A stretch of DNA of 5,950 nt, taken from a virus. Below, in pieces: positions 1 through 5,950 of the stretch; within the stretch, counting starts at the first letter, position 1, and every line of letters begins with the position of its first letter. The notes beneath the pieces are model-generated. The model ran no database searches. It had not been told where the DNA came from and saw only the letters and a list, made by a program, of their open reading frames with translations. Both the position numbers and the translations under genes were made by a program. The stretch lies in IMG/VR virus record IMGVR_UViG_3300020030_000013, positions 1-5,950 of that record, one strand, 5' to 3'.

Positions 1-43
1 AGGCCTTGATTGCGTACCCTGACTTTTCGGTCGATTTTTTCGA
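1..43. repeat. Terminal redundancy, an exact copy of 5908..5950, marking a closed circular genome of 5907 nt
   Basis: The string aggccttgattgcgtaccctgacttttcggtcgattttttcga at 1..43 is identical to 5908..5950, base by base. This is the typical overlap signature of a circular contig. Confidence 0.97.
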
Positions 44-122
44 CAATACGCTCGTTTTAATGTTTAGTACTGATCTGACTCGCGATGAAAGCACGTCGAA
101 AGAAGAAGGGAAGGGGAACTAA
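1..122 (+). CDS. 3' part of a junction-spanning hypothetical protein (107 aa once the circle is closed; the 5' part is 5706..5907)
   Basis: The reading frame entering from 5706 continues through the repeat. Codons GCC TTG ATT start at base 3 and the frame runs to TAA at 120..122. The C-terminal sequence is ...EALIAYPDFSVDFFDNTLVLMFSTDLTRDESTSKEEGKGN. By my count 48 of 107 codons end in T, like the core genes. I recognise no homology. Confidence 0.6.
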   Translation, partial: ALIAYPDFSVDFFDNTLVLMFSTDLTRDESTSKEEGKGN

Positions 123-168
123 AGTAGTGACCCGCCCGCTTGGTGGTAGAGTTCTTTAACTCGTTAGT

Positions 169-202
169 CCTGCGGGAGAAAAATCTCTCGCAGGCTTTTT
201 TT
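169..202 (+). terminator. Rho-independent terminator
   Basis: An 11-bp stem pairs cctgcgggaga (169..179) with tctctcgcagg (184..194). There is one G.U pair at 175/188 and the loop is aaaa (180..183). The stem is followed by c and then seven T (196..202). It sits 46 nt after the stop codon at 120..122. Confidence 0.85.
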
Positions 203-228
203 CAAGCGTAGATTAATGCTTTTAAGTT

Positions 229-429
229 ATGGATAATTTTGATTTTAAGCCTAGATTTTCTCCTATTATTAATGGTGTTCCTCATCGTTATTCTATTGGC
301 GCATATCGCGGCAAAAAGCGAGTCCCTATCGCTTGGTTTGTCGACGAAGGTTCTGCAAACGACTATCTTGCTCGCTGTCGTCGGACTAACCCTTATATCA
401 AGTTTGATTGTCTTAGAAGTCTTTTTTAA
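229..429 (+). CDS. Small basic hypothetical protein (66 aa), translationally coupled to the replication initiator
   Basis: ATG start. By my count 41 of 66 codons end in T, a strong frame signal. There are 12 K/R versus 6 D/E. The stop TAA (427..429) overlaps the Rep ATG (429..431) as TAATG. I recognise no family. Confidence 0.7.
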   Translation: MDNFDFKPRFSPIINGVPHRYSIGAYRGKKRVPIAWFVDEGSANDYLARCRRTNPYIKFDCLRSLF

Positions 430-1499
430 TGCCCTGCTCTTCCCCTATATGGATACGGAATCGTCGTTATTTCGACAAGAAGAATCCCTGTCGTAACGGT
501 TCCGACGTCGCCAAGTCCGCTTTGGCTCTTCGCCCCTGGGATATTGCTCGCCAGTGGCTAATGGTTCCCTGCGGAAAGTGTGAAGACTGCTTGCGTCGTC
601 AGCGTAACGATTGGTTTATCCGACTTGAGCGCGAGCTTGCTCGTTGTAAAGCCGATTCTCAGCAGGCTATCTTCATTACGATAACTATTGCTCCTGAGTA
701 TTATCAGGAAGCTCTTCTTGACCCGGCCCGTTTTATTCGACGATGGAACGAGCGTGTTCGCCACAATCTTGGTCACTCTTTTAAACATGCGTTTTTCCAA
801 GAGTTTGGCACCCACCCCGAAGTTGGTTCTGAGCCGCGCCTACATTTCCATGGTTTTCTTTTTGGGACTAATGTTTTATACAACGAAATCCGAAAGGCTG
901 TTGGAGACCTTGGTTTTGTTTGGCTCGGGAAGGGCACGCACAAGCGGGCTCGATATGTTGTTAAATATGTTACTAAACAAATCCAGTTTAACCCCGAGGA
1001 TGTTTCGGGTAAATTCGTTACTATAAATGGAAAAGCTACACCTCTATCTACTCTCCTCCAACATCGCCGTTATACGCGAAAATTCGTATCTGCTGGCGTT
1101 GGTGATTTTCTTGGCTATATGCCTCGTCCTTCTGCTCGTATTACGTCGTGGTCTTATTTCGACTTTAAGAAGGGTATCAATTATAATTACTCGATTCCTC
1201 GATATTATCTTAGGTATCTTAAACCGGAAGACGACGTTGTTCGCTCGATTACCGCTGCTGACGCTTATTCACGTTTTAGCAAGTCTTCTCTGGTTAAGCG
1301 TATTGTGTCTCTGTGTGTTGAGCGGTTCAATCTCAACTCCGCCGTATCCGGTAGAGCGTCGTACACGTGGGAGCAAAAGCAAATGATGCGCTTCTCTTCC
1401 TCCTCTCAAAAAATGCCTAATTTCGATCCTCCTACTTGGCTTGATTTCGATATCCTTCATTTTTGGGAGGATCACTATAAACTTCAACTAATTATTTAA
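429..1499 (+). CDS. Replication initiation protein (Microviridae VP4 / gene A-like HUH rolling-circle endonuclease)
   Basis: RCR motif 1 is FITITI (aa 82-87). The HUH motif is LHFHGFLF, with H139-F-H141 at nt 843..851. The catalytic tyrosine motif is ARYVVKYVTK, with Y176 at nt 954..956 and Y180. The N-terminal MPCSSPIWIRN plus PCGKCEDCLRRQRNDW (cysteines at nt 570..590) is typical of non-phiX microvirus Reps. Confidence 0.94.
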   Translation: MPCSSPIWIRNRRYFDKKNPCRNGSDVAKSALALRPWDIARQWLMVPCGKCEDCLRRQRNDWFIRLERELARCKADSQQAIFITITIAPEYYQEALLDPARFIRRWNERVRHNLGHSFKHAFFQEFGTHPEVGSEPRLHFHGFLFGTNVLYNEIRKAVGDLGFVWLGKGTHKRARYVVKYVTKQIQFNPEDVSGKFVTINGKATPLSTLLQHRRYTRKFVSAGVGDFLGYMPRPSARITSWSYFDFKKGINYNYSIPRYYLRYLKPEDDVVRSITAADAYSRFSKSSLVKRIVSLCVERFNLNSAVSGRASYTWEQKQMMRFSSSSQKMPNFDPPTWLDFDILHFWEDHYKLQLII

Positions 1500-1502
1500 T
1501 TT

Positions 1503-3302
1503 ATGGGAAAACAACCTTTTATCTCACACGCCGTAAATGGCTACTCTCGCTATGATGTTCCTGAGAGTAAAGCCTTTACATGCACACCGGGTATTCTCTA
1601 TCCGGTGCGAATCGATTTTATTAATGCTCGGGACCGCGTATCCATTGAGCAGGGAATTGACGTTCGGAGCAATCCGCTTGCCGTTCCGACGTTTAACCCC
1701 TATACTGTTCGGCTTCATCGCTTCTGGGTGCCCCTTCAGCTGTATCACCCCGAGCTTCGGACGAATAGTAGTAAGTTTGATATGAACGATTTGAGTCTTA
1801 ATTGGATTGCCTCTTGTCAGCCTCAAGCGGGTAGTCTGAATGCTGATTTTTTCGGTGCGGCTTATACTAATTCGTTGATGGCTTGGTTGCGTATCGCTAA
1901 TAAATACACTACTGGTGTATCCAGCGTTCCTTCTTCCGTGTCTCTCCCCGCTAATTCTTCTATGGATCGTTGGAGTAATGCGGATTCGTATTTAGCCTAT
2001 TGGGATATCGTCCGCAACTACTATAGCTATTCGCAGTGGGGACTTTACTCTTTCGCTTGGCCCATGGCTAACAAAGTTCGTTATTCTGGTTCTTCTTATG
2101 CTCTCGATCCCGATAATTCTGGAGACTCTCGCTTTTTTACACAGTGTTTTGGAAATCTTGAGTTCCTTGATGCTTACTTTGAGAGTCAGTTTTATCCGTC
2201 GGCCTTGACTTCTACGAATAATACTTTTAATCGCGGTAATTTGTTTACGCAGATAATTCGTTCTGACCTGGATAATGCTGCTGCTTCCGGTAATGGTTTC
2301 CCCGTTTCTACGACCCTCCCGTCTTCCTCGCTTTGGGGTTCAACCGGTATTATTTCTCAGATTTTGCCTACTGCTTCTTCTGCGGGCAATTCTGCTGTTT
2401 CCTATTTTGTTACAGCGCATCCTATGGCTGTATGTCCTTCGAATCCCGATCGTTTTAGTCGTCTTATTCCCACTGGCGCTAATTCTGCTGTATCTATGAC
2501 GGGCGTGTCTACTATTCCTCAGTTGGCCATTGCTTCTCGTCTCCAGGAATACAAGGACTTGCTTGGTGCTGGAGGTAGCCGTTATAGTGATTGGCTGGAA
2601 ACGTTTTTTGCCTCCAAGATTGAGCACGTTGATCGTCCAAAACTCCTTTTCAGTGCCTCGCAGACTGTTAATGTGCAGATTATTATGAATCAAGCCGGGG
2701 ATAATAATTTTTCTGGTAATCAACCCCTTGGGCAACAAGGCGGTTCTATTGCTTTCAATGATCGTTTAGGTCGTCGTCAGTCTTATTACTTTCGTGAGCC
2801 TGGTTATATAATTGATATGTTGAGTATTCGCCCTGTTTATTACTGGTCTTTTATCAAGCCGGACTATCTCAACTACATGGGTCCTGACTACTTTAACCCT
2901 ATTTATAACGATATTGGATATCAAGACGTTCCTGCCTTTCGTCTTGCTTTTAACGGCAATCCTGGGGCTTCATTTGCTACCGAACCTTGTTTTAATGAGT
3001 TTCGTTCTTCTTATGATGAGGTGTTAGGTCAGCTCCAGGCTTATAATATGCCGGAGGCCGAAGGTGGATCCGGAATTCCTCTCTACTCTTATTGGGTTCA
3101 GCAGCGCACTGTTTATACTCATAGTGGAACCGGTTCCCTTCCTGAGGCTAGTTATTATCCCCTTCTTTTCGTTGATTTGGCTCAGGTTAATTCTCCTTTT
3201 AAGTCAAATGTTGAGGATAATTTCTTTGTGAATATGTCTTATGCCGTCCAGAAGAAGAGCCTCGTTAATAAAACTTTTGCGACTCGTTTGTCTAACCGTT
3301 AA
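1503..3302 (+). CDS. Major capsid protein (Microviridae VP1 / F-like jelly-roll capsid protein)
   Basis: The ORF is 599 aa. Conserved microvirus capsid blocks are present: TPGILYPVRIDFINARDRVSI, LHRFWVPLQLYHP, AYWDIVRNYY, ASRLQEYKDLLGAGGSRYSDWLETFF, DRPKLLFSAS and YQDVPAFR. It is the largest ORF and has a strong T3 codon bias. Confidence 0.95.
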   Translation: MGKQPFISHAVNGYSRYDVPESKAFTCTPGILYPVRIDFINARDRVSIEQGIDVRSNPLAVPTFNPYTVRLHRFWVPLQLYHPELRTNSSKFDMNDLSLNWIASCQPQAGSLNADFFGAAYTNSLMAWLRIANKYTTGVSSVPSSVSLPANSSMDRWSNADSYLAYWDIVRNYYSYSQWGLYSFAWPMANKVRYSGSSYALDPDNSGDSRFFTQCFGNLEFLDAYFESQFYPSALTSTNNTFNRGNLFTQIIRSDLDNAAASGNGFPVSTTLPSSSLWGSTGIISQILPTASSAGNSAVSYFVTAHPMAVCPSNPDRFSRLIPTGANSAVSMTGVSTIPQLAIASRLQEYKDLLGAGGSRYSDWLETFFASKIEHVDRPKLLFSASQTVNVQIIMNQAGDNNFSGNQPLGQQGGSIAFNDRLGRRQSYYFREPGYIIDMLSIRPVYYWSFIKPDYLNYMGPDYFNPIYNDIGYQDVPAFRLAFNGNPGASFATEPCFNEFRSSYDEVLGQLQAYNMPEAEGGSGIPLYSYWVQQRTVYTHSGTGSLPEASYYPLLFVDLAQVNSPFKSNVEDNFFVNMSYAVQKKSLVNKTFATRLSNR

Positions 3303-3314
3303 TACATTGATTTT

Positions 3315-3611
3315 ATGGCACTTGATTGGTTACTTGAAGATGTTCCCGCTTACGTTTCTCGCGGTCAGCGTATCCTTTCCGTTCTTGACGGTTCTGGTTC
3401 TGTCGACGTCCTTCCCGGTCGTCCAGATGTAACAGCTGAACCCTCTGACTTTGAGAAAGGAGAGAAGTATAATCCTGATATTGACTTTGACCCTAATTCC
3501 TTCTCTCGTATGGATAAGTTTGACGGTCTCGAAGTAGGTCAAGAACTTATTGATTCAATGATAGATAGGAGTAAGTCTGACTCGAAGTCTACTAATCCTG
3601 AAGAAAAATAG
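3315..3611 (+). CDS. Acidic hypothetical protein (98 aa); candidate internal scaffolding protein
   Basis: ATG start 12 nt after the capsid stop. By my count 48 of 98 codons end in T. There are 22 D/E versus 11 K/R. The scaffold function is only inferred, from size, charge and position beside the capsid gene. Confidence 0.6.
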   Translation: MALDWLLEDVPAYVSRGQRILSVLDGSGSVDVLPGRPDVTAEPSDFEKGEKYNPDIDFDPNSFSRMDKFDGLEVGQELIDSMIDRSKSDSKSTNPEEK

Positions 3612-3633
3612 GATATCCTTTACTTGACGATAT

Positions 3634-3936
3634 ATGCTACGTGCGCGGACCCCTCTTGCAAGAGTTCGTGAATTGCTAGAGGTTATTGGTAACGACTGCA
3701 GGAGAGGCCGCGCATTTTTCTATCGTTCTTTAAATTCTACTATCATGTCTGATACCAAACAACCGTTTTATAAGTCGAAGGCGTTTTGGACGCTTGTTTC
3801 TTCTATTGTCGCTGCTTTAGCTGCCTTTTTTCTTGCCTCGTGTTCGGCTCAAGCTAGAATGCAGCGTAGCGGCGTTCACATCGACACTGTCCGTGTTGAT
3901 TATATTATTCGTTCTAACAATTTAACCCATATATAG
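3634..3936 (+). CDS. Small membrane protein, probably a lipoprotein precursor; the maximal ORF is 100 aa and the more plausible product is 63 aa from the internal ATG at 3745
   Basis: From M38 (nt 3745) the sequence is MSDTKQPFYKSK-AFWTLVSSIVAALAAFFLAS-C. This gives a Lys-rich n-region, a 20-aa hydrophobic core and a lipobox L-A-S-C. The mature peptide would be 31 aa (CSAQARMQRSGVHIDTVRVDYIIRSNNLTHI). By my count 32 of 63 codons in 3745..3936 end in T. The stop TAG (3934..3936) is 1 nt before the next gene. The upstream 37 codons overlap the stem-loop at 3642..3719, so the true start is uncertain. Confidence 0.65.
   Translation: MLRARTPLARVRELLEVIGNDCRRGRAFFYRSLNSTIMSDTKQPFYKSKAFWTLVSSIVAALAAFFLASCSAQARMQRSGVHIDTVRVDYIIRSNNLTHI
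3642..3719 (+). other. Extended imperfect stem-loop followed by a T5 run (candidate terminator and/or ssDNA structural element)
   Basis: Pairings are 3642..3648 tgcgcgg with 3708..3714 ccgcgca (7 bp), 3652..3656 cctct with 3703..3707 agagg (5 bp), and 3657..3660 tgca with 3697..3700 tgca (4 bp). A further 5 bp form between 3664..3669 and 3692..3696, with one bulged base. The apical loop is about 3670..3691, and ttttt follows at 3715..3719. A competing local 12-nt perfect palindrome, ctcttgcaagag, lies at 3653..3664. Confidence 0.6.
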
Positions 3937-3937
3937 T

Positions 3938-5305
3938 ATGCCTATTCCCATTGCCTCCGCCGCATCCTTCGGTCAAGCCCTTGGTCAGTCCGCTGCCTCT
4001 ACGGGTACTACAGGCTTGATTTCTGGCGCCCTTGGTCAGCTTTTCGGAGGCATGAATGCCCGTCGCCAGTGGCGTTTTCAACAAAAGCAAATGAAGCTTC
4101 AACAGCAGTATGCTTTAGAGCAAATGCAGAAACAGTCGGAGCTTTCTTACGCTAATTGGCAGAAACAATTTGATTATGAAAACGCTTATAATGACCCTTC
4201 AAAACTTTTTGCTCGCTATTTGAAGGCTGGTGTTACCCCTGCCGCCGTTTTAGGTTCTTCAGGCGTTGGCGTCAACGCTACGATGTCAGGAGGTTCTGCT
4301 GCTATGCCTTCCGCTGCTGGTCCTTCTGGTGGTTCCCCAGTTAGTCCCGGTGCTTCACCTATTGCCGACCCCGCTGCTATTGCGCAGAATATGGTTGCCC
4401 AGTCTACGGTTGATCGCAATACTGCTGCCGCTGCTCGTGATGAAGCGGAGGCTCGTTCTATTGATGACCAGAATGTCGGCAATCAGCTTTATGTTGCTAT
4501 GGCTCAGGCTCGTGTAGCTCTTGATGAGGCAGTAACAAAACATAATTTAGCTGCCCATGATGTTCTTCGAGTTCAAGAGGATATAGAAAAGAACAATCGA
4601 TTTATTTCTGATTCTACCCTTTTGAGTGTCATTGATGAAAAGAAGAATCAGGCTGCCCTTGTCGCTGCGGAAGTTCGCCGCTTGAATATCGAGAATGAAA
4701 ATATAGGTGCTGTCATGTCGGCTCAAGCCTTCATGATGAATACTCAGGCTGCTCTCAATCAAGTTCTTGGCCAGCAGGCTCGTGAAGTTATAGAGTCTTT
4801 ACGTTTAAATAATCTTGACACTGCTAATGAGCTCGCGCGTAATTGGGACAAGCGTTTCGATATCGAAATTCCGAATCCTCAGTATTCAGGAAATCTTAGA
4901 AGCAAAAATCCTATTACCCGTGGAAATCCCGGTCCTAAGACTTTCAAGATTTCAATGTCGCTTAAAGATTTTCACGATAAAACCATTATAAACGAAGCAA
5001 ATGCATCTGATTTCCTTCCCGAGCAGGCCCGCATTGCTCTTCGTAACGCGAAGGTTGACCCGTATGTTGAAATTTCTAAAGCTTTAGTCGGTGCGGCTGC
5101 TAGCATCGCTGGCGCAGGTATAATTCGCGGAGGCATGTCTCGTGCCTCTAAGACTATCTCTGCTGGCGGTTCTACCAGCGATTCCGCCGGCTCTTCGCTT
5201 ACGACTCGTTATGACTCGAGAGGAAATCTTGTTGGTTATGCGAAGACAGAGATGACTCGTGGTACTCACTCGAGTTCGTACAATACTACTCGAAGCTCTC
5301 GTTAG
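3938..5305 (+). CDS. Minor capsid / DNA pilot protein (Microviridae VP2 / H-like)
   Basis: The ORF is 455 aa. It has a Gly/Ala-rich hydrophobic N-terminus (PIPIASAASFGQALGQSAASTGTTGLISGALGQLFGG), then a Q-rich segment. The motif YENAYNDPSKLFARYLKAGVTPAAVLG (nt 4175..4255) is typical of VP2 proteins. An A/G/S/P linker is followed by a long heptad-like Ala/Gln/Glu region and a C-terminal glycine-zipper-like segment, ALVGAAASIAGAGIIRGG. Confidence 0.82.
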   Translation: MPIPIASAASFGQALGQSAASTGTTGLISGALGQLFGGMNARRQWRFQQKQMKLQQQYALEQMQKQSELSYANWQKQFDYENAYNDPSKLFARYLKAGVTPAAVLGSSGVGVNATMSGGSAAMPSAAGPSGGSPVSPGASPIADPAAIAQNMVAQSTVDRNTAAAARDEAEARSIDDQNVGNQLYVAMAQARVALDEAVTKHNLAAHDVLRVQEDIEKNNRFISDSTLLSVIDEKKNQAALVAAEVRRLNIENENIGAVMSAQAFMMNTQAALNQVLGQQAREVIESLRLNNLDTANELARNWDKRFDIEIPNPQYSGNLRSKNPITRGNPGPKTFKISMSLKDFHDKTIINEANASDFLPEQARIALRNAKVDPYVEISKALVGAAASIAGAGIIRGGMSRASKTISAGGSTSDSAGSSLTTRYDSRGNLVGYAKTEMTRGTHSSSYNTTRSSR

Positions 5306-5319
5306 AATTGTTGATTTTT

Positions 5320-5350
5320 TTTGCATTTTAGATTTTTGTTGTTATATTTG
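5320..5350 (+). promoter_or_regulatory. Candidate Bacteroidota-type promoter (-33 TTTG / -7 TAnnTTTG)
   Basis: TTTG lies at 5320..5323, followed by a 19-nt spacer and TAtaTTTG at 5343..5350. It sits in the 71-nt gap after the VP2 stop. In my scan this is the only one of four TAnnTTTG occurrences on the + strand that is both intergenic and has a correctly spaced upstream TTTG. Confidence 0.5.
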
Positions 5351-5376
5351 TGGCACAAACCAATAACCGTATTGCT

Positions 5377-5682
5377 ATGGAGAACACCAAAAGATTTAAA
5401 GTCGACAAGTTGATGATCGACGTTGTAGAGTACGCATTTGTTGAGTGGCTTGTTCGTCGAGGGATATTTACTGCCTTTAGGGCGAACTATGACCACATCC
5501 CTACGGCTCGAAAGACCTTTCGAGACTACTTGCGTGGCCACATTCGATATGTTTATCGTACGCCTAGCCTCGGCCCTGAGTCCCTCATCTCCTCTGCTTT
5601 TCTGTTTGATTCAACTCCCGAGGGTTACGAATTCTGGCTTAGGCACTCCGACGCTTGGAGGCGTTTTTACGGTAAGCTCTAA
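5377..5682 (+). CDS. Hypothetical protein (101 aa from the ATG; the ORF track extends it to a GTG at 5350) with a C-terminal F-x-F-D-S-T-P-E-G-Y-x-F-W motif
   Basis: The open frame runs 5350..5682. The GTG at 5350 is the last base of the predicted -7 promoter box, so ATG 5377 is the likely start. Codon usage differs from the core genes: 34 of 101 codons end in T and 32 in C, Arg is AGR 4 / CGA 4 / CGT 4, and Asp is GAC 5 / GAT 1. I cannot name a family. Confidence 0.6.
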   Translation: MENTKRFKVDKLMIDVVEYAFVEWLVRRGIFTAFRANYDHIPTARKTFRDYLRGHIRYVYRTPSLGPESLISSAFLFDSTPEGYEFWLRHSDAWRRFYGKL

Positions 5683-5705
5683 ATGAAACATTAAATTATA
5701 TTACT

Positions 5706-5950
5706 ATGACACAAGTTCATGTTGTTATTCGCCGCATTAATCCGGCCCTCAATGTCGATTTTGTTCAGGTAGGCTATATTAAAGAGGGACAATTTTCGAC
5801 ACTTCAGCTCAGTACCCTCGATTGCACTCCTATTCCTGATTATGTAGAGCTTTCCAGTATCTCTGCTACGCCTCATATTAATCATAGCCTTATTCCCAGT
5901 CTCATAGAGGCCTTGATTGCGTACCCTGACTTTTCGGTCGATTTTTTCGA
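5706..5950 (+). CDS. 5' part of the junction-spanning hypothetical protein (107 aa; it continues into 44..122 of the circle)
   Basis: ATG at 5706 is the first start after an in-frame TAA at 5673..5675. There is no stop before the window end. The translation is MTQVHVVIRRINPALNVDFVQVGYIKEGQFSTLQLSTLDCTPIPDYVELSSISATPHINHSLIPSLIEALIAYPDFSVDFF... It is absent from the ORF track only because the window is cut inside it. Confidence 0.6.
   Translation, partial: MTQVHVVIRRINPALNVDFVQVGYIKEGQFSTLQLSTLDCTPIPDYVELSSISATPHINHSLIPSLIEALIAYPDFSVDFF
5908..5950. repeat. Terminal redundancy, an exact copy of 1..43
   Basis: Identical 43-nt string; see the feature at 1..43. Confidence 0.97.

Follow-up and report, generated by a model that had tools for sequence, protein, structure and literature searches.

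The window analyzed here, a stretch of viral DNA of 5,950 nucleotides (nt) (IMG/VR record IMGVR_UViG_3300020030_000013, positions 1 to 5,950), carries directly upstream of the gene for the pilot protein VP2 a short open reading frame (ORF; 3745-3936) whose product is very probably a lipid-anchored peptide of 31 residues, released from a predicted substrate of signal peptidase II. Judged by sequence comparison, this ORF is a genuine gene under strong purifying selection, and it appears to be core rather than accessory in its clade of gut microviruses. For the lipopeptide itself we tentatively favor a role as an envelope-directed effector of progeny release or lysis. The features discussed below are collected in Table 1.

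Translation from ATG 3745 gives MSDTKQPFYKSKAFWTLVSSIVAALAAFFLASCSAQARMQRSGVHIDTVRVDYIIRSNNLTHI, a protein of 63 amino acids (aa), and 32 of its 63 codons have T in the third place. A single base separates the stop codon from ATG 3938 of VP2 (TAG-T-ATG), and translational coupling of the two genes is possible. A search of 5.8 billion proteins yielded 396 clusters of the family at 90% identity, nearly all of them on contigs of up to ~6 kb (two listed were on contigs of ~12 kb), at least 175 loci were confirmed by tblastn in IMG/VR, and a profile search of 1.84 billion representatives gave 66 matches. In 85 distinct nucleotide versions of the gene, variation was concentrated at third positions (codon-position entropies of 0.24, 0.11, and 1.05). 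For loci that had been picked by similarity to the lipoprotein itself, the pairwise ratio of nonsynonymous to synonymous substitution (dN/dS) was 0.038, the lowest among the three genes measured (0.079 for ORF98 and 0.098 for Rep), and the constraint was equal on the signal peptide (codons 1 to 32; 0.039) and on the mature part (0.038). In eight genomes picked independently of the lipoprotein, by whole-genome or VP1 similarity, the protein was 71 to 89% identical to that of the window (80 to 89% in seven of them and 71% in L005), with VP1 67 to 88% identical and VP2 only 34 to 42%; even there it ranks among the best-conserved proteins. The 63-aa form was found in 86 of the 91 sequences examined, with ATG 3745 as the conserved start. 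Every fetched relative with a VP1 at least 55% identical has the gene in the same place, directly before VP2, and these relatives include Tortoise microvirus 7, Poophage MBI-2016a, and one genome from human feces. It is on this conservation (homologues, third-position variation, dN/dS, and the kept Cys), and not on the lipobox pattern alone, that the status of the ORF as a gene rests.

The predicted signal peptide has an n-region with three lysines (K5, K10, and K12), in which S11-K12 is invariant across the family, and an h-region of 20 aa (A13 to S32) that is free of charged residues. Lipoprotein rules of the PROSITE PS51257 type ask for K or R within the first seven residues, a lipobox of the form [LVI][ASTVI][GAS]C, and a Cys between residues 15 and 35. 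In the window protein a Lys is present within the first seven residues, the lipobox L30-A31-S32-C33 matches the pattern, and the Cys stands at position 33. The signal peptide is unusually conserved, S11, K12, F14, W15, A23, A24, L25, and F29 being invariant in both of the mature types described below, and AlphaFold2, run with an alignment of 48 sequences, gave a confident membrane helix (predicted local distance difference test score [pLDDT] of ~90 for residues 11 to 30). For its part, the mature peptide shows an alternation of hydrophobic and polar residues, which might suggest a beta-hairpin, with a net charge of +2, no Pro, and no second Cys, and its residues G42, H44, and D46 are invariant, long-form relatives included.

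The hallmarks of the lipobox were kept throughout the family. The Cys was present in 227 of the 236 family proteins collected, and the residue preceding it was S (158 proteins), G (62), or A (7), with no others; position -2 was mostly S, A, T, or V, and position -3 mostly L, V, T, or A. The variants seen were LASC, LSSC, LTSC, LAAC, VSGC, VAGC, AVSC, LVSC, AASC, LTAC, FCSC, and LESC, and the distance from the conserved Trp to the Cys was 18 residues in 222 family proteins. The nine proteins without a Cys at the set spacing were fragments, frameshifted calls, or variants with a different N terminus or missed by the pattern that still have a lipobox. In four cases (P0229, P0234, and P0235, which belong to these nine, and L096) unrelated hydrophobic leaders were found, each ending in a lipobox before the mature domain of the family, which is of type T2 in L096 and of type T1 in the other three. 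The lipobox and the mature peptide thus behave as a constant unit, retained as they are behind unrelated leaders. Third-party GenBank records carry the automatic name "lipoprotein [Microviridae sp.]" for DAU60727.1, a 100-aa call, and DAH63314.1, a 63-aa call. No description of the gene was found in the literature searched (microvirus/Alpavirinae lipoprotein, lipobox, spanin, and single-gene lysis), and the family of very small phage lipoproteins would be new and unnamed beyond these automatic labels.

An earlier note, made from the letters of the window alone, had described a textbook signal peptidase II substrate and a real, clearly coding phage gene, on the grounds of the T-ending codons and the 1-nt distance from VP2. 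Its statements on the sequence (ATG 3745, n-region, 20-aa core, LAS|C, 31-aa mature part, and TAG-T-ATG) were all reproduced. Both interpretations were also strengthened by the comparison: the Cys and the restricted residue before it are conserved in the homologues, even behind unrelated signal peptides, the third-position variation and the dN/dS are those of a coding sequence, and the syntenic lipobox ORF that the note had thought worth seeking in related genomes is present in all the fetched relatives within the VP1 limit given above.

In a Bacteroidales host, the 63-aa precursor would be inserted via Sec, Cys33 would be diacylglyceryl-modified by Lgt, and signal peptidase II would then cut before it, so that an acylated peptide of 31 residues would remain on the periplasmic face of the envelope. 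The surface-export signal of Bacteroidota lipoproteins consists of acidic residues after the Cys. No acidic residues follow the Cys here, and the 31-aa peptide is therefore probably periplasm facing.

The same note had pointed to an in-frame ATG at 3634 and considered two products conceivable, an anchored form of 100 aa and a lipidated form of 63 aa. The ATG and its 37-aa extension, MLRAR..., with eight Arg residues, do exist, but the extension showed no codon periodicity, with flat entropies of 0.35, 0.34, and 0.39 in 51 in-phase relatives. It was out of frame or interrupted by stop codons in 42 of 89 relatives, often only four codons before the ATG, and in two pairs of genomes (L004/L007 and L005/L010) it is set apart from the gene by stop-containing insertions of 34 to ~90 nt. 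The 100-aa form, and with it the pair of products, was thus ruled out by frame, stop-codon, and periodicity evidence. The longer reading frame is an accident of spacing and the 100-aa calls in public records are wrong; the upstream 111 nt do not belong to the protein but to a conserved structured element that acts in cis.

Under the favored reading, the acylated peptide, perhaps together with the conserved 32-aa signal peptide, would destabilize the outer membrane or the cell wall at a late stage of infection. Expressed in step with VP2 from a shared transcript, it would be analogous in its working principle to the ~28-aa colicin release lipoproteins (BRP). In size the mature lipopeptide is of the same class as BRP and Rz1, and the equal constraint on the signal peptide of the window protein recalls the signal peptide of BRP, which is stable and functional. 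A release role is supported by the universality of the gene in relatives and by a constraint stronger than that on the other two genes measured, in a genome of 6 kb. Searches of the genome with Pfam, PHROG, and NCBIfam revealed no muralytic enzyme, E homologue, holin, endolysin, or Rz profile. The earlier note had held that the lysis mechanism of non-phiX microviruses is largely unknown, which stands in general but not for a subset with M15 peptidases, for which a role as endolysins has been proposed (PMC3394797; phiHBP1, PMC13064476). Among the 107 sequences examined here, ~100 of which carry the lipoprotein gene, an M15 peptidase was found in none except phiHBP1, and no family member was present in four peptidase-bearing microviruses, including the cultured Bacteroides phage phiHBP1. 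This complementary distribution, drawn from few and phylogenetically nonindependent lineages, fits a lysis role weakly. The more specific proposal that the acylated peptide, possibly with the conserved signal peptide after its release, serves a large clade of gut microviruses that infect Bacteroidales as their single-gene lysis effector seems unlikely to us; such an effector would hit a conserved periplasmic or outer membrane target and not a cytoplasmic-face step of lipid II synthesis.

A second lysis candidate, one that the earlier note does not mention, was found inside Rep, where a 119-aa ORF in the +1 frame (1027-1386) encodes two hydrophobic helices and a basic C terminus. Synonymous variation of Rep is suppressed at nt 1011 to 1376, coinciding exactly with this ORF (0.26 to 0.39, versus a gene mean of 0.89), and the suppressed stretch is the only long one among the seven genes tested. 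Both the ATG and the stop codon of the ORF are kept in 76 of 91 relatives, and the ORF recurs in diverged relatives with the motif IRENSYLLAL...HVLASL.WF...PPYP.E. The overprinted product is likely, on this evidence, a real membrane protein, and it is a lysis candidate at least as good as the lipoprotein.

The lipoprotein family comprises two mature types with one shared signal peptide, namely, T1 (...SGVHIDTVRVDYIIRSNN), to which the window protein belongs, and T2 (...HRVQQTATSF.G.DSVVM.ITYD.RGN.KK), with 51 clusters. Alignment of the two requires an indel of 5 residues, and they may be homologues that have diverged; they are interspersed on the VP1, VP2, and VP4 trees. In a more distant clade, with Dulem virus 219, bajarodmic viruses 393 and 634, and an Alistipes prophage among its members, the module is placed between VP2 and Rep, where it forms either a gene of its own (62 aa) or the first part of an ORF of 160 to 223 aa. 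Such long forms were located in L104 (4097-4672), L105 (~4697-5320), and L106 (9977-10585) and among proteins P0175 to P0225. Their middle part is unconserved and shares its DNA with a second open frame at each of the three loci inspected; in L105 that frame is annotated. Their end is a conserved J-like basic tail, ...RRGGRRG.P.PK.K.IPLGGSHL, and they also have a short hydrophobic patch. Since a tail of this kind stands in the window as a gene of its own (24 aa, 85-159), the long forms may result from reading through into a separate J-like gene and would then not be spanin-like proteins, although they could also be a real fusion or tether or a u-spanin-like protein. The long-form protein P0182 gave no matches as a probe of IMG/VR. 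A different 67-aa lipobox ORF, MESFRFPLRRWCRNLLLVLFVVSVFASC..., was observed between VP2 and Rep at 4125-4328 of Microvirus mar36 (L102), whose VP1 is only 31% identical; it was not detected as a member of the family, and small lipoproteins may have more than one origin among gut microviruses. A Pfam search of the accessory ORFs of more distant relatives without the lipoprotein gave no matches.

A search of 185,579 species genomes with the lipoprotein alignment gave a single family match, in a microvirus prophage of Alistipes montrealensis that is situated on a scaffold of 839 kb; VP1, used as a prophage probe against the same genomes, found no match. The prophage member is 76% identical over residues 10 to 60. 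The prophage itself covers ~5 kb (9935-14793 in L106, which is Alistipes montrealensis kh20 scaffold1, 121510-141662) in the order lipoprotein long form, Rep, VP1, 112-aa ORF, and VP2, and is flanked by bacterial genes, a helix-turn-helix gene and a formate/nitrite-transporter-like gene. From this homologue, together with the lack of Shine-Dalgarno sequences in the window, we infer a diderm host group, the Bacteroidales.

Several of these results, and some others, weigh against or limit the above reading of the gene, its product, and its role. A scan with the PROSITE-like rule also matched two alternative-frame ORFs in the window, the lipobox pattern by itself being not beyond chance, and AlphaFold2 rendered the mature part as a continuous helix of low confidence (pLDDT of 50 to 65). 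The choice of the dN/dS loci constitutes an ascertainment bias, and the complementarity with M15 peptidases has the narrow lineage basis already mentioned. Searches of Pfam, PHROGs, NCBIfam, PADLOC, and PDB sequences (phmmer and profile) with the 63- and 100-aa forms returned nothing significant, the only weak profile or sequence matches being to the lipoprotein signal regions of YgdI/YgdR (E value of 0.15) and NosL (E value of 2). In the sequence and profile searches no similarity to BRP, Rz1, Llp, Cor, entericidins, or phiX174 E was detected, and thus the comparison that the earlier note had drawn with BRP, Rz1, Llp, and Cor found no counterpart in homology. A 31-aa lipopeptide has no obvious means to breach peptidoglycan, and the ORF within Rep is the better-looking lysis candidate of the same genome; were it the lysis gene, the lipoprotein would probably have another role. 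Finally, the family member of the Alistipes prophage, a temperate microvirus, stands at the prophage end, a typical place for exclusion genes.

This last position leads to superinfection exclusion or receptor masking, which we consider only slightly less probable than a release role. In this case the acylated peptide would lie in the outer membrane, bind the phage receptor or the DNA-entry route, and block secondary infection, and the progeny would be spared from waste on debris and outer membrane vesicles, as with T5 Llp. Small phage outer membrane lipoproteins such as T5 Llp and Cor act in this way. The location beside host genes in the prophage, the position of the module, which varies among microvirus clades like that of a mobile accessory cassette, and the alternative mature domains T1 and T2, sharing one signal peptide and scattered over the three trees, are all in agreement with exclusion, as is the presence of a separate plausible lysis gene in the genome. 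However, the peptide stays 80 to 89% identical in most of the eight genomes in which VP1 and especially VP2 diverge, and thus it does not track the proteins of receptor or entry specificity. A dispensable exclusion gene in a genome of 6 kb would also not usually be universal or under the strongest purifying selection of the three genes measured. Moreover, Llp and Cor are about twice the size of the mature part, and no homology to either was found with Pfam, PHROG, and PADLOC.

Another role in the envelope, such as tethering or organizing the site of infection or assembly at the membrane, partnership with VP2 in DNA delivery during the next cycle, or modulation of the host surface or vesicles, appears unlikely, and we know of no precedent for an envelope role of this kind that is neither lysis nor exclusion. 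It is suggested by the 1-nt spacer to VP2 and the tight linkage in the clade of the window, and the distant-clade module, which reads on in frame through a long overprinted linker to a J-like basic tail, gives a hint of membrane-to-cytoplasm tethering. Nevertheless, the lipoprotein does not covary with VP2, the module does not adjoin VP2 in other clades, and the long form may have arisen in gene calling, by reading through into a J-like gene of the kind that stands alone at 85-159.

That there is no lipidation at all, the N-terminal helix being an uncleaved signal anchor or a transmembrane protein antibiotic like phiX174 E, is improbable. The helix would then bind a membrane enzyme of cell wall synthesis, and the Cys would be conserved for another reason. 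A hydrophobic segment of 20 aa is long enough to span the membrane, the helix is exceptionally conserved (FW, AAL, and FF are invariant across T1, T2, and the long forms), the active part of phiX174 E is its transmembrane domain, and two distant relatives have an E at position -2 (LESC), which is atypical for a lipobox. Such an anchor would not account for the restriction of position -1 to S, G, or A in 227 proteins, for the fixed spacing between Trp and Cys, or for the retention of the lipobox and mature domain behind wholly different hydrophobic segments (the four unrelated leaders), and the constraint on the mature part equals that on the helix. The weakest alternative, a chance open frame in a T-rich genome that mimics a lipoprotein signal, draws on the hydrophobic character that T-rich third positions give to alternative frames and on the two non-genes matched by the lipobox scan, and can be dismissed with near certainty in view of the codon periodicity, the dN/dS of 0.038, the conserved start and stop, and the hundreds of homologues.

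With regard to its context, the window is a complete circular microvirus genome with ~5,907 nt of unique sequence and a GC content of 44.7%; a 43-nt direct terminal repeat (1-43 and 5908-5950) indicates that the assembly ran past its own start. Its closest GenBank relatives are uncultured Microviridae from pig, deer, civet, rodent, lemur, tortoise, and human feces, with DNA identities of 73 to 82%, and its VP1 is ~25% identical to that of Parabacteroides phage YZ-2015a. No Shine-Dalgarno sequence was found before any gene of the window. The previously unannotated 24-aa basic gene encodes MKARRKKKGRGTKVVTRPLGGRVL, which we take to resemble the J/VP8 DNA-packaging peptides of microviruses, and is followed by a terminator-like hairpin, CCTGCGGGAGAAAAATCTCTCGCAGG, with a T run (169-194); homologues are present in L001, L092, and L098. 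Modular mosaicism was strong between the window and the genomes compared (L001 to L010 and L092 to L098), with incongruent VP1, VP2, and VP4 trees. VP2 and ORF110 are only 34 to 42% and 27 to 44% identical, respectively, in genomes in which Rep, ORF98, and the lipoprotein are 71 to 89% identical, and this, together with the incongruent trees, implies frequent recombination around the pilot gene.

Table 1. Features of the window, with the prolipoprotein gene and its parts first
Feature	Position	Strand	Remarks
Prolipoprotein gene	3745-3936	+	ATG 3745, 63 codons, TAG 3934-3936
Signal peptide, residues 1-32	3745-3840	+	n-region MSDTKQPFYKSK, 3745-3780; h-region AFWTLVSSIVAALAAFFLAS, 3781-3840
Lipobox L30-A31-S32-C33	3832-3843	+	Predicted signal peptidase II cut before C33
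Mature lipopeptide, 31 aa	3841-3933	+	CSAQARMQRSGVHIDTVRVDYIIRSNNLTHI; type T1
Upstream extension, 37 aa	3634-3744	+	Not coding
Structured element	3617-3733	+	Conserved, noncoding; between ORF98 stop and lipoprotein start
Overprinted ORF, 119 aa	1027-1386		+1 frame inside Rep/VP4 (429-1499); two hydrophobic helices, basic C terminus ...PPYPVERRTRGSKSK
J/VP8-like basic gene, 24 aa	85-159
ORF66	229-429
Rep/VP4	429-1499
Major capsid protein VP1	1503-3302
ORF98	3315-3611		Acidic; in the position of the scaffold protein
Pilot protein VP2	3938-5305	+	PHROG 8689 (pilot protein for DNA ejection); annotated VP2 in relatives
ORF110	5350-5682

The structured element upstream of the lipoprotein gene begins with a nearly invariant motif, CCTTTACTTGACGATATATGCTAC, and ends in an invariant, T-rich tail, TTTTTCTATCGTTCTTT. 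Its fold comprises an outer stem (3641-3648/3708-3715), a second helix (3649-3651/3688-3690), and a hairpin (3652-3661/3673-3682). In an alignment of 93 distinct sequences, with a mean column identity of 90%, 98.4% of the cells were paired and 11 pairs were changed on both sides, a level reached by none of 500 shuffles; slid controls were 28 to 52% paired. An alternative long-range pairing was 96.8% compatible, with covariation at one pair. The presence of G-U pairs points to the + strand (viral single-stranded DNA [ssDNA] or mRNA) as the one that folds. Each genome has the 5' motif once, and this holds even for distant relatives without a recognizable hairpin part; its ACTTGA..ATAT resembles the nick site of the phiX174 origin. 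An Rfam search of the whole window gave no match. The element is thus a candidate for a replication origin, a complementary-strand origin, or an attenuating terminator. A hairpin serving as a simple terminator only was set aside on account of the nearly invariant flanks and of the 5' motif kept where the hairpin is unrecognizable. The spacer that follows (equivalent to window positions 3734 to 3744) is an insertion hot spot for extra GC-rich hairpins; one insertion is of 34 nt, with TCGCGCGAAGCGCGA and an A/T run, and another of ~90 nt, at ~3303-3346 in L004/L007, ~3306-3400 in L005, and ~2324-2420 in L010.

Gut microviruses are among the commonest phages of the mammalian gut, and the way in which microviruses outside the phiX174 group leave their host is unknown, apart from the carriers of M15 peptidases. 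For one large clade, comprising hundreds of genomes from pig, rodent, lemur, tortoise, and human feces and with a Bacteroidales host, the present analysis offers two testable lysis candidates, the universal 31-aa lipopeptide and the overprinted two-helix protein in Rep. If it is the lysis factor, the lipopeptide would represent a new, small, and genetically tractable breach of the Bacteroidales envelope, and as a single-gene effector it would be the first lysis protein of the lipoprotein type in an ssDNA phage. An exclusion factor would instead provide a handle on the receptor or entry route. In addition, public annotation can be corrected, the upstream part of the 100-aa ORF calls being a conserved cis element.

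Among known systems, the lysis proteins of Col plasmids (BRP; Pfam Lysis_col) resemble the window protein in being very small prolipoproteins (45 to 63 aa) that give an acylated peptide of ~28 to 31 aa, in having a long hydrophobic signal peptide, which in BRP is stable and itself active, and in lacking an enzymatic domain, their proposed action on the outer membrane releasing the cell contents. With 31 aa and no domain match, the mature peptide falls within the size range of BRP (~27 to 35 aa, with no enzymatic domain), whereas membership in Lysis_col was not indicated by Pfam (no match at an E value of ≤0.1 with the 100-aa translation that contains the 63 aa) or by NCBIfam (no match above noise). 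Unlike BRP, which comes from enterobacterial plasmids, the lipoprotein comes from an ssDNA phage of Bacteroidales, and its gene is not part of an SOS-regulated colicin operon. Furthermore, BRP alone gives quasi-lysis through phospholipase A and is not known to suffice for virion release.

The Rz1 o-spanins and the T1 gp11 u-spanins are likewise small outer membrane lipoproteins of phages, with a mature part of ~40 aa, acting in the last step of lysis. A spanin reading was rejected for the window protein: there is no i-spanin partner (the neighbors are ORF98 and VP2) and no holin or endolysin in the genome, and the mutual absence of M15 peptidase and lipoprotein is the opposite of what would be expected of a spanin. 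In contrast to Rz1, the mature part is not Pro rich and offers no periplasmic Cys from which disulfide dimers could form, its only Cys being the acylated one, and in contrast to the u-spanins it has no C-terminal transmembrane domain, ending 31 aa after the Cys without a hydrophobic C terminus. T5 Llp and Cor (phi80, N15, and HK022) are also small lipoproteins of phages and, once sorted to the outer membrane, bind the receptor of their own phage, Llp shielding the progeny from debris; they differ from the window protein in size, as noted above, and in the absence of homology, and the conservation of the latter does not follow the capsid and pilot proteins. With phiX174 E, an inhibitor of MraY, the lipoprotein shares its origin in a microvirus, its tiny size, an N-terminal hydrophobic helix, and a genome devoid of a muralytic enzyme. 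However, the two show no homology, the lipoprotein gene is free-standing and not overprinted, and its product has a lipobox and a conserved exported domain, with a helix that lacks a conserved Pro. The ORF at 1027-1386, overprinted within Rep, reproduces the architecture of phiX174 E within D, and in this respect it is a closer analogue of E than the lipoprotein.

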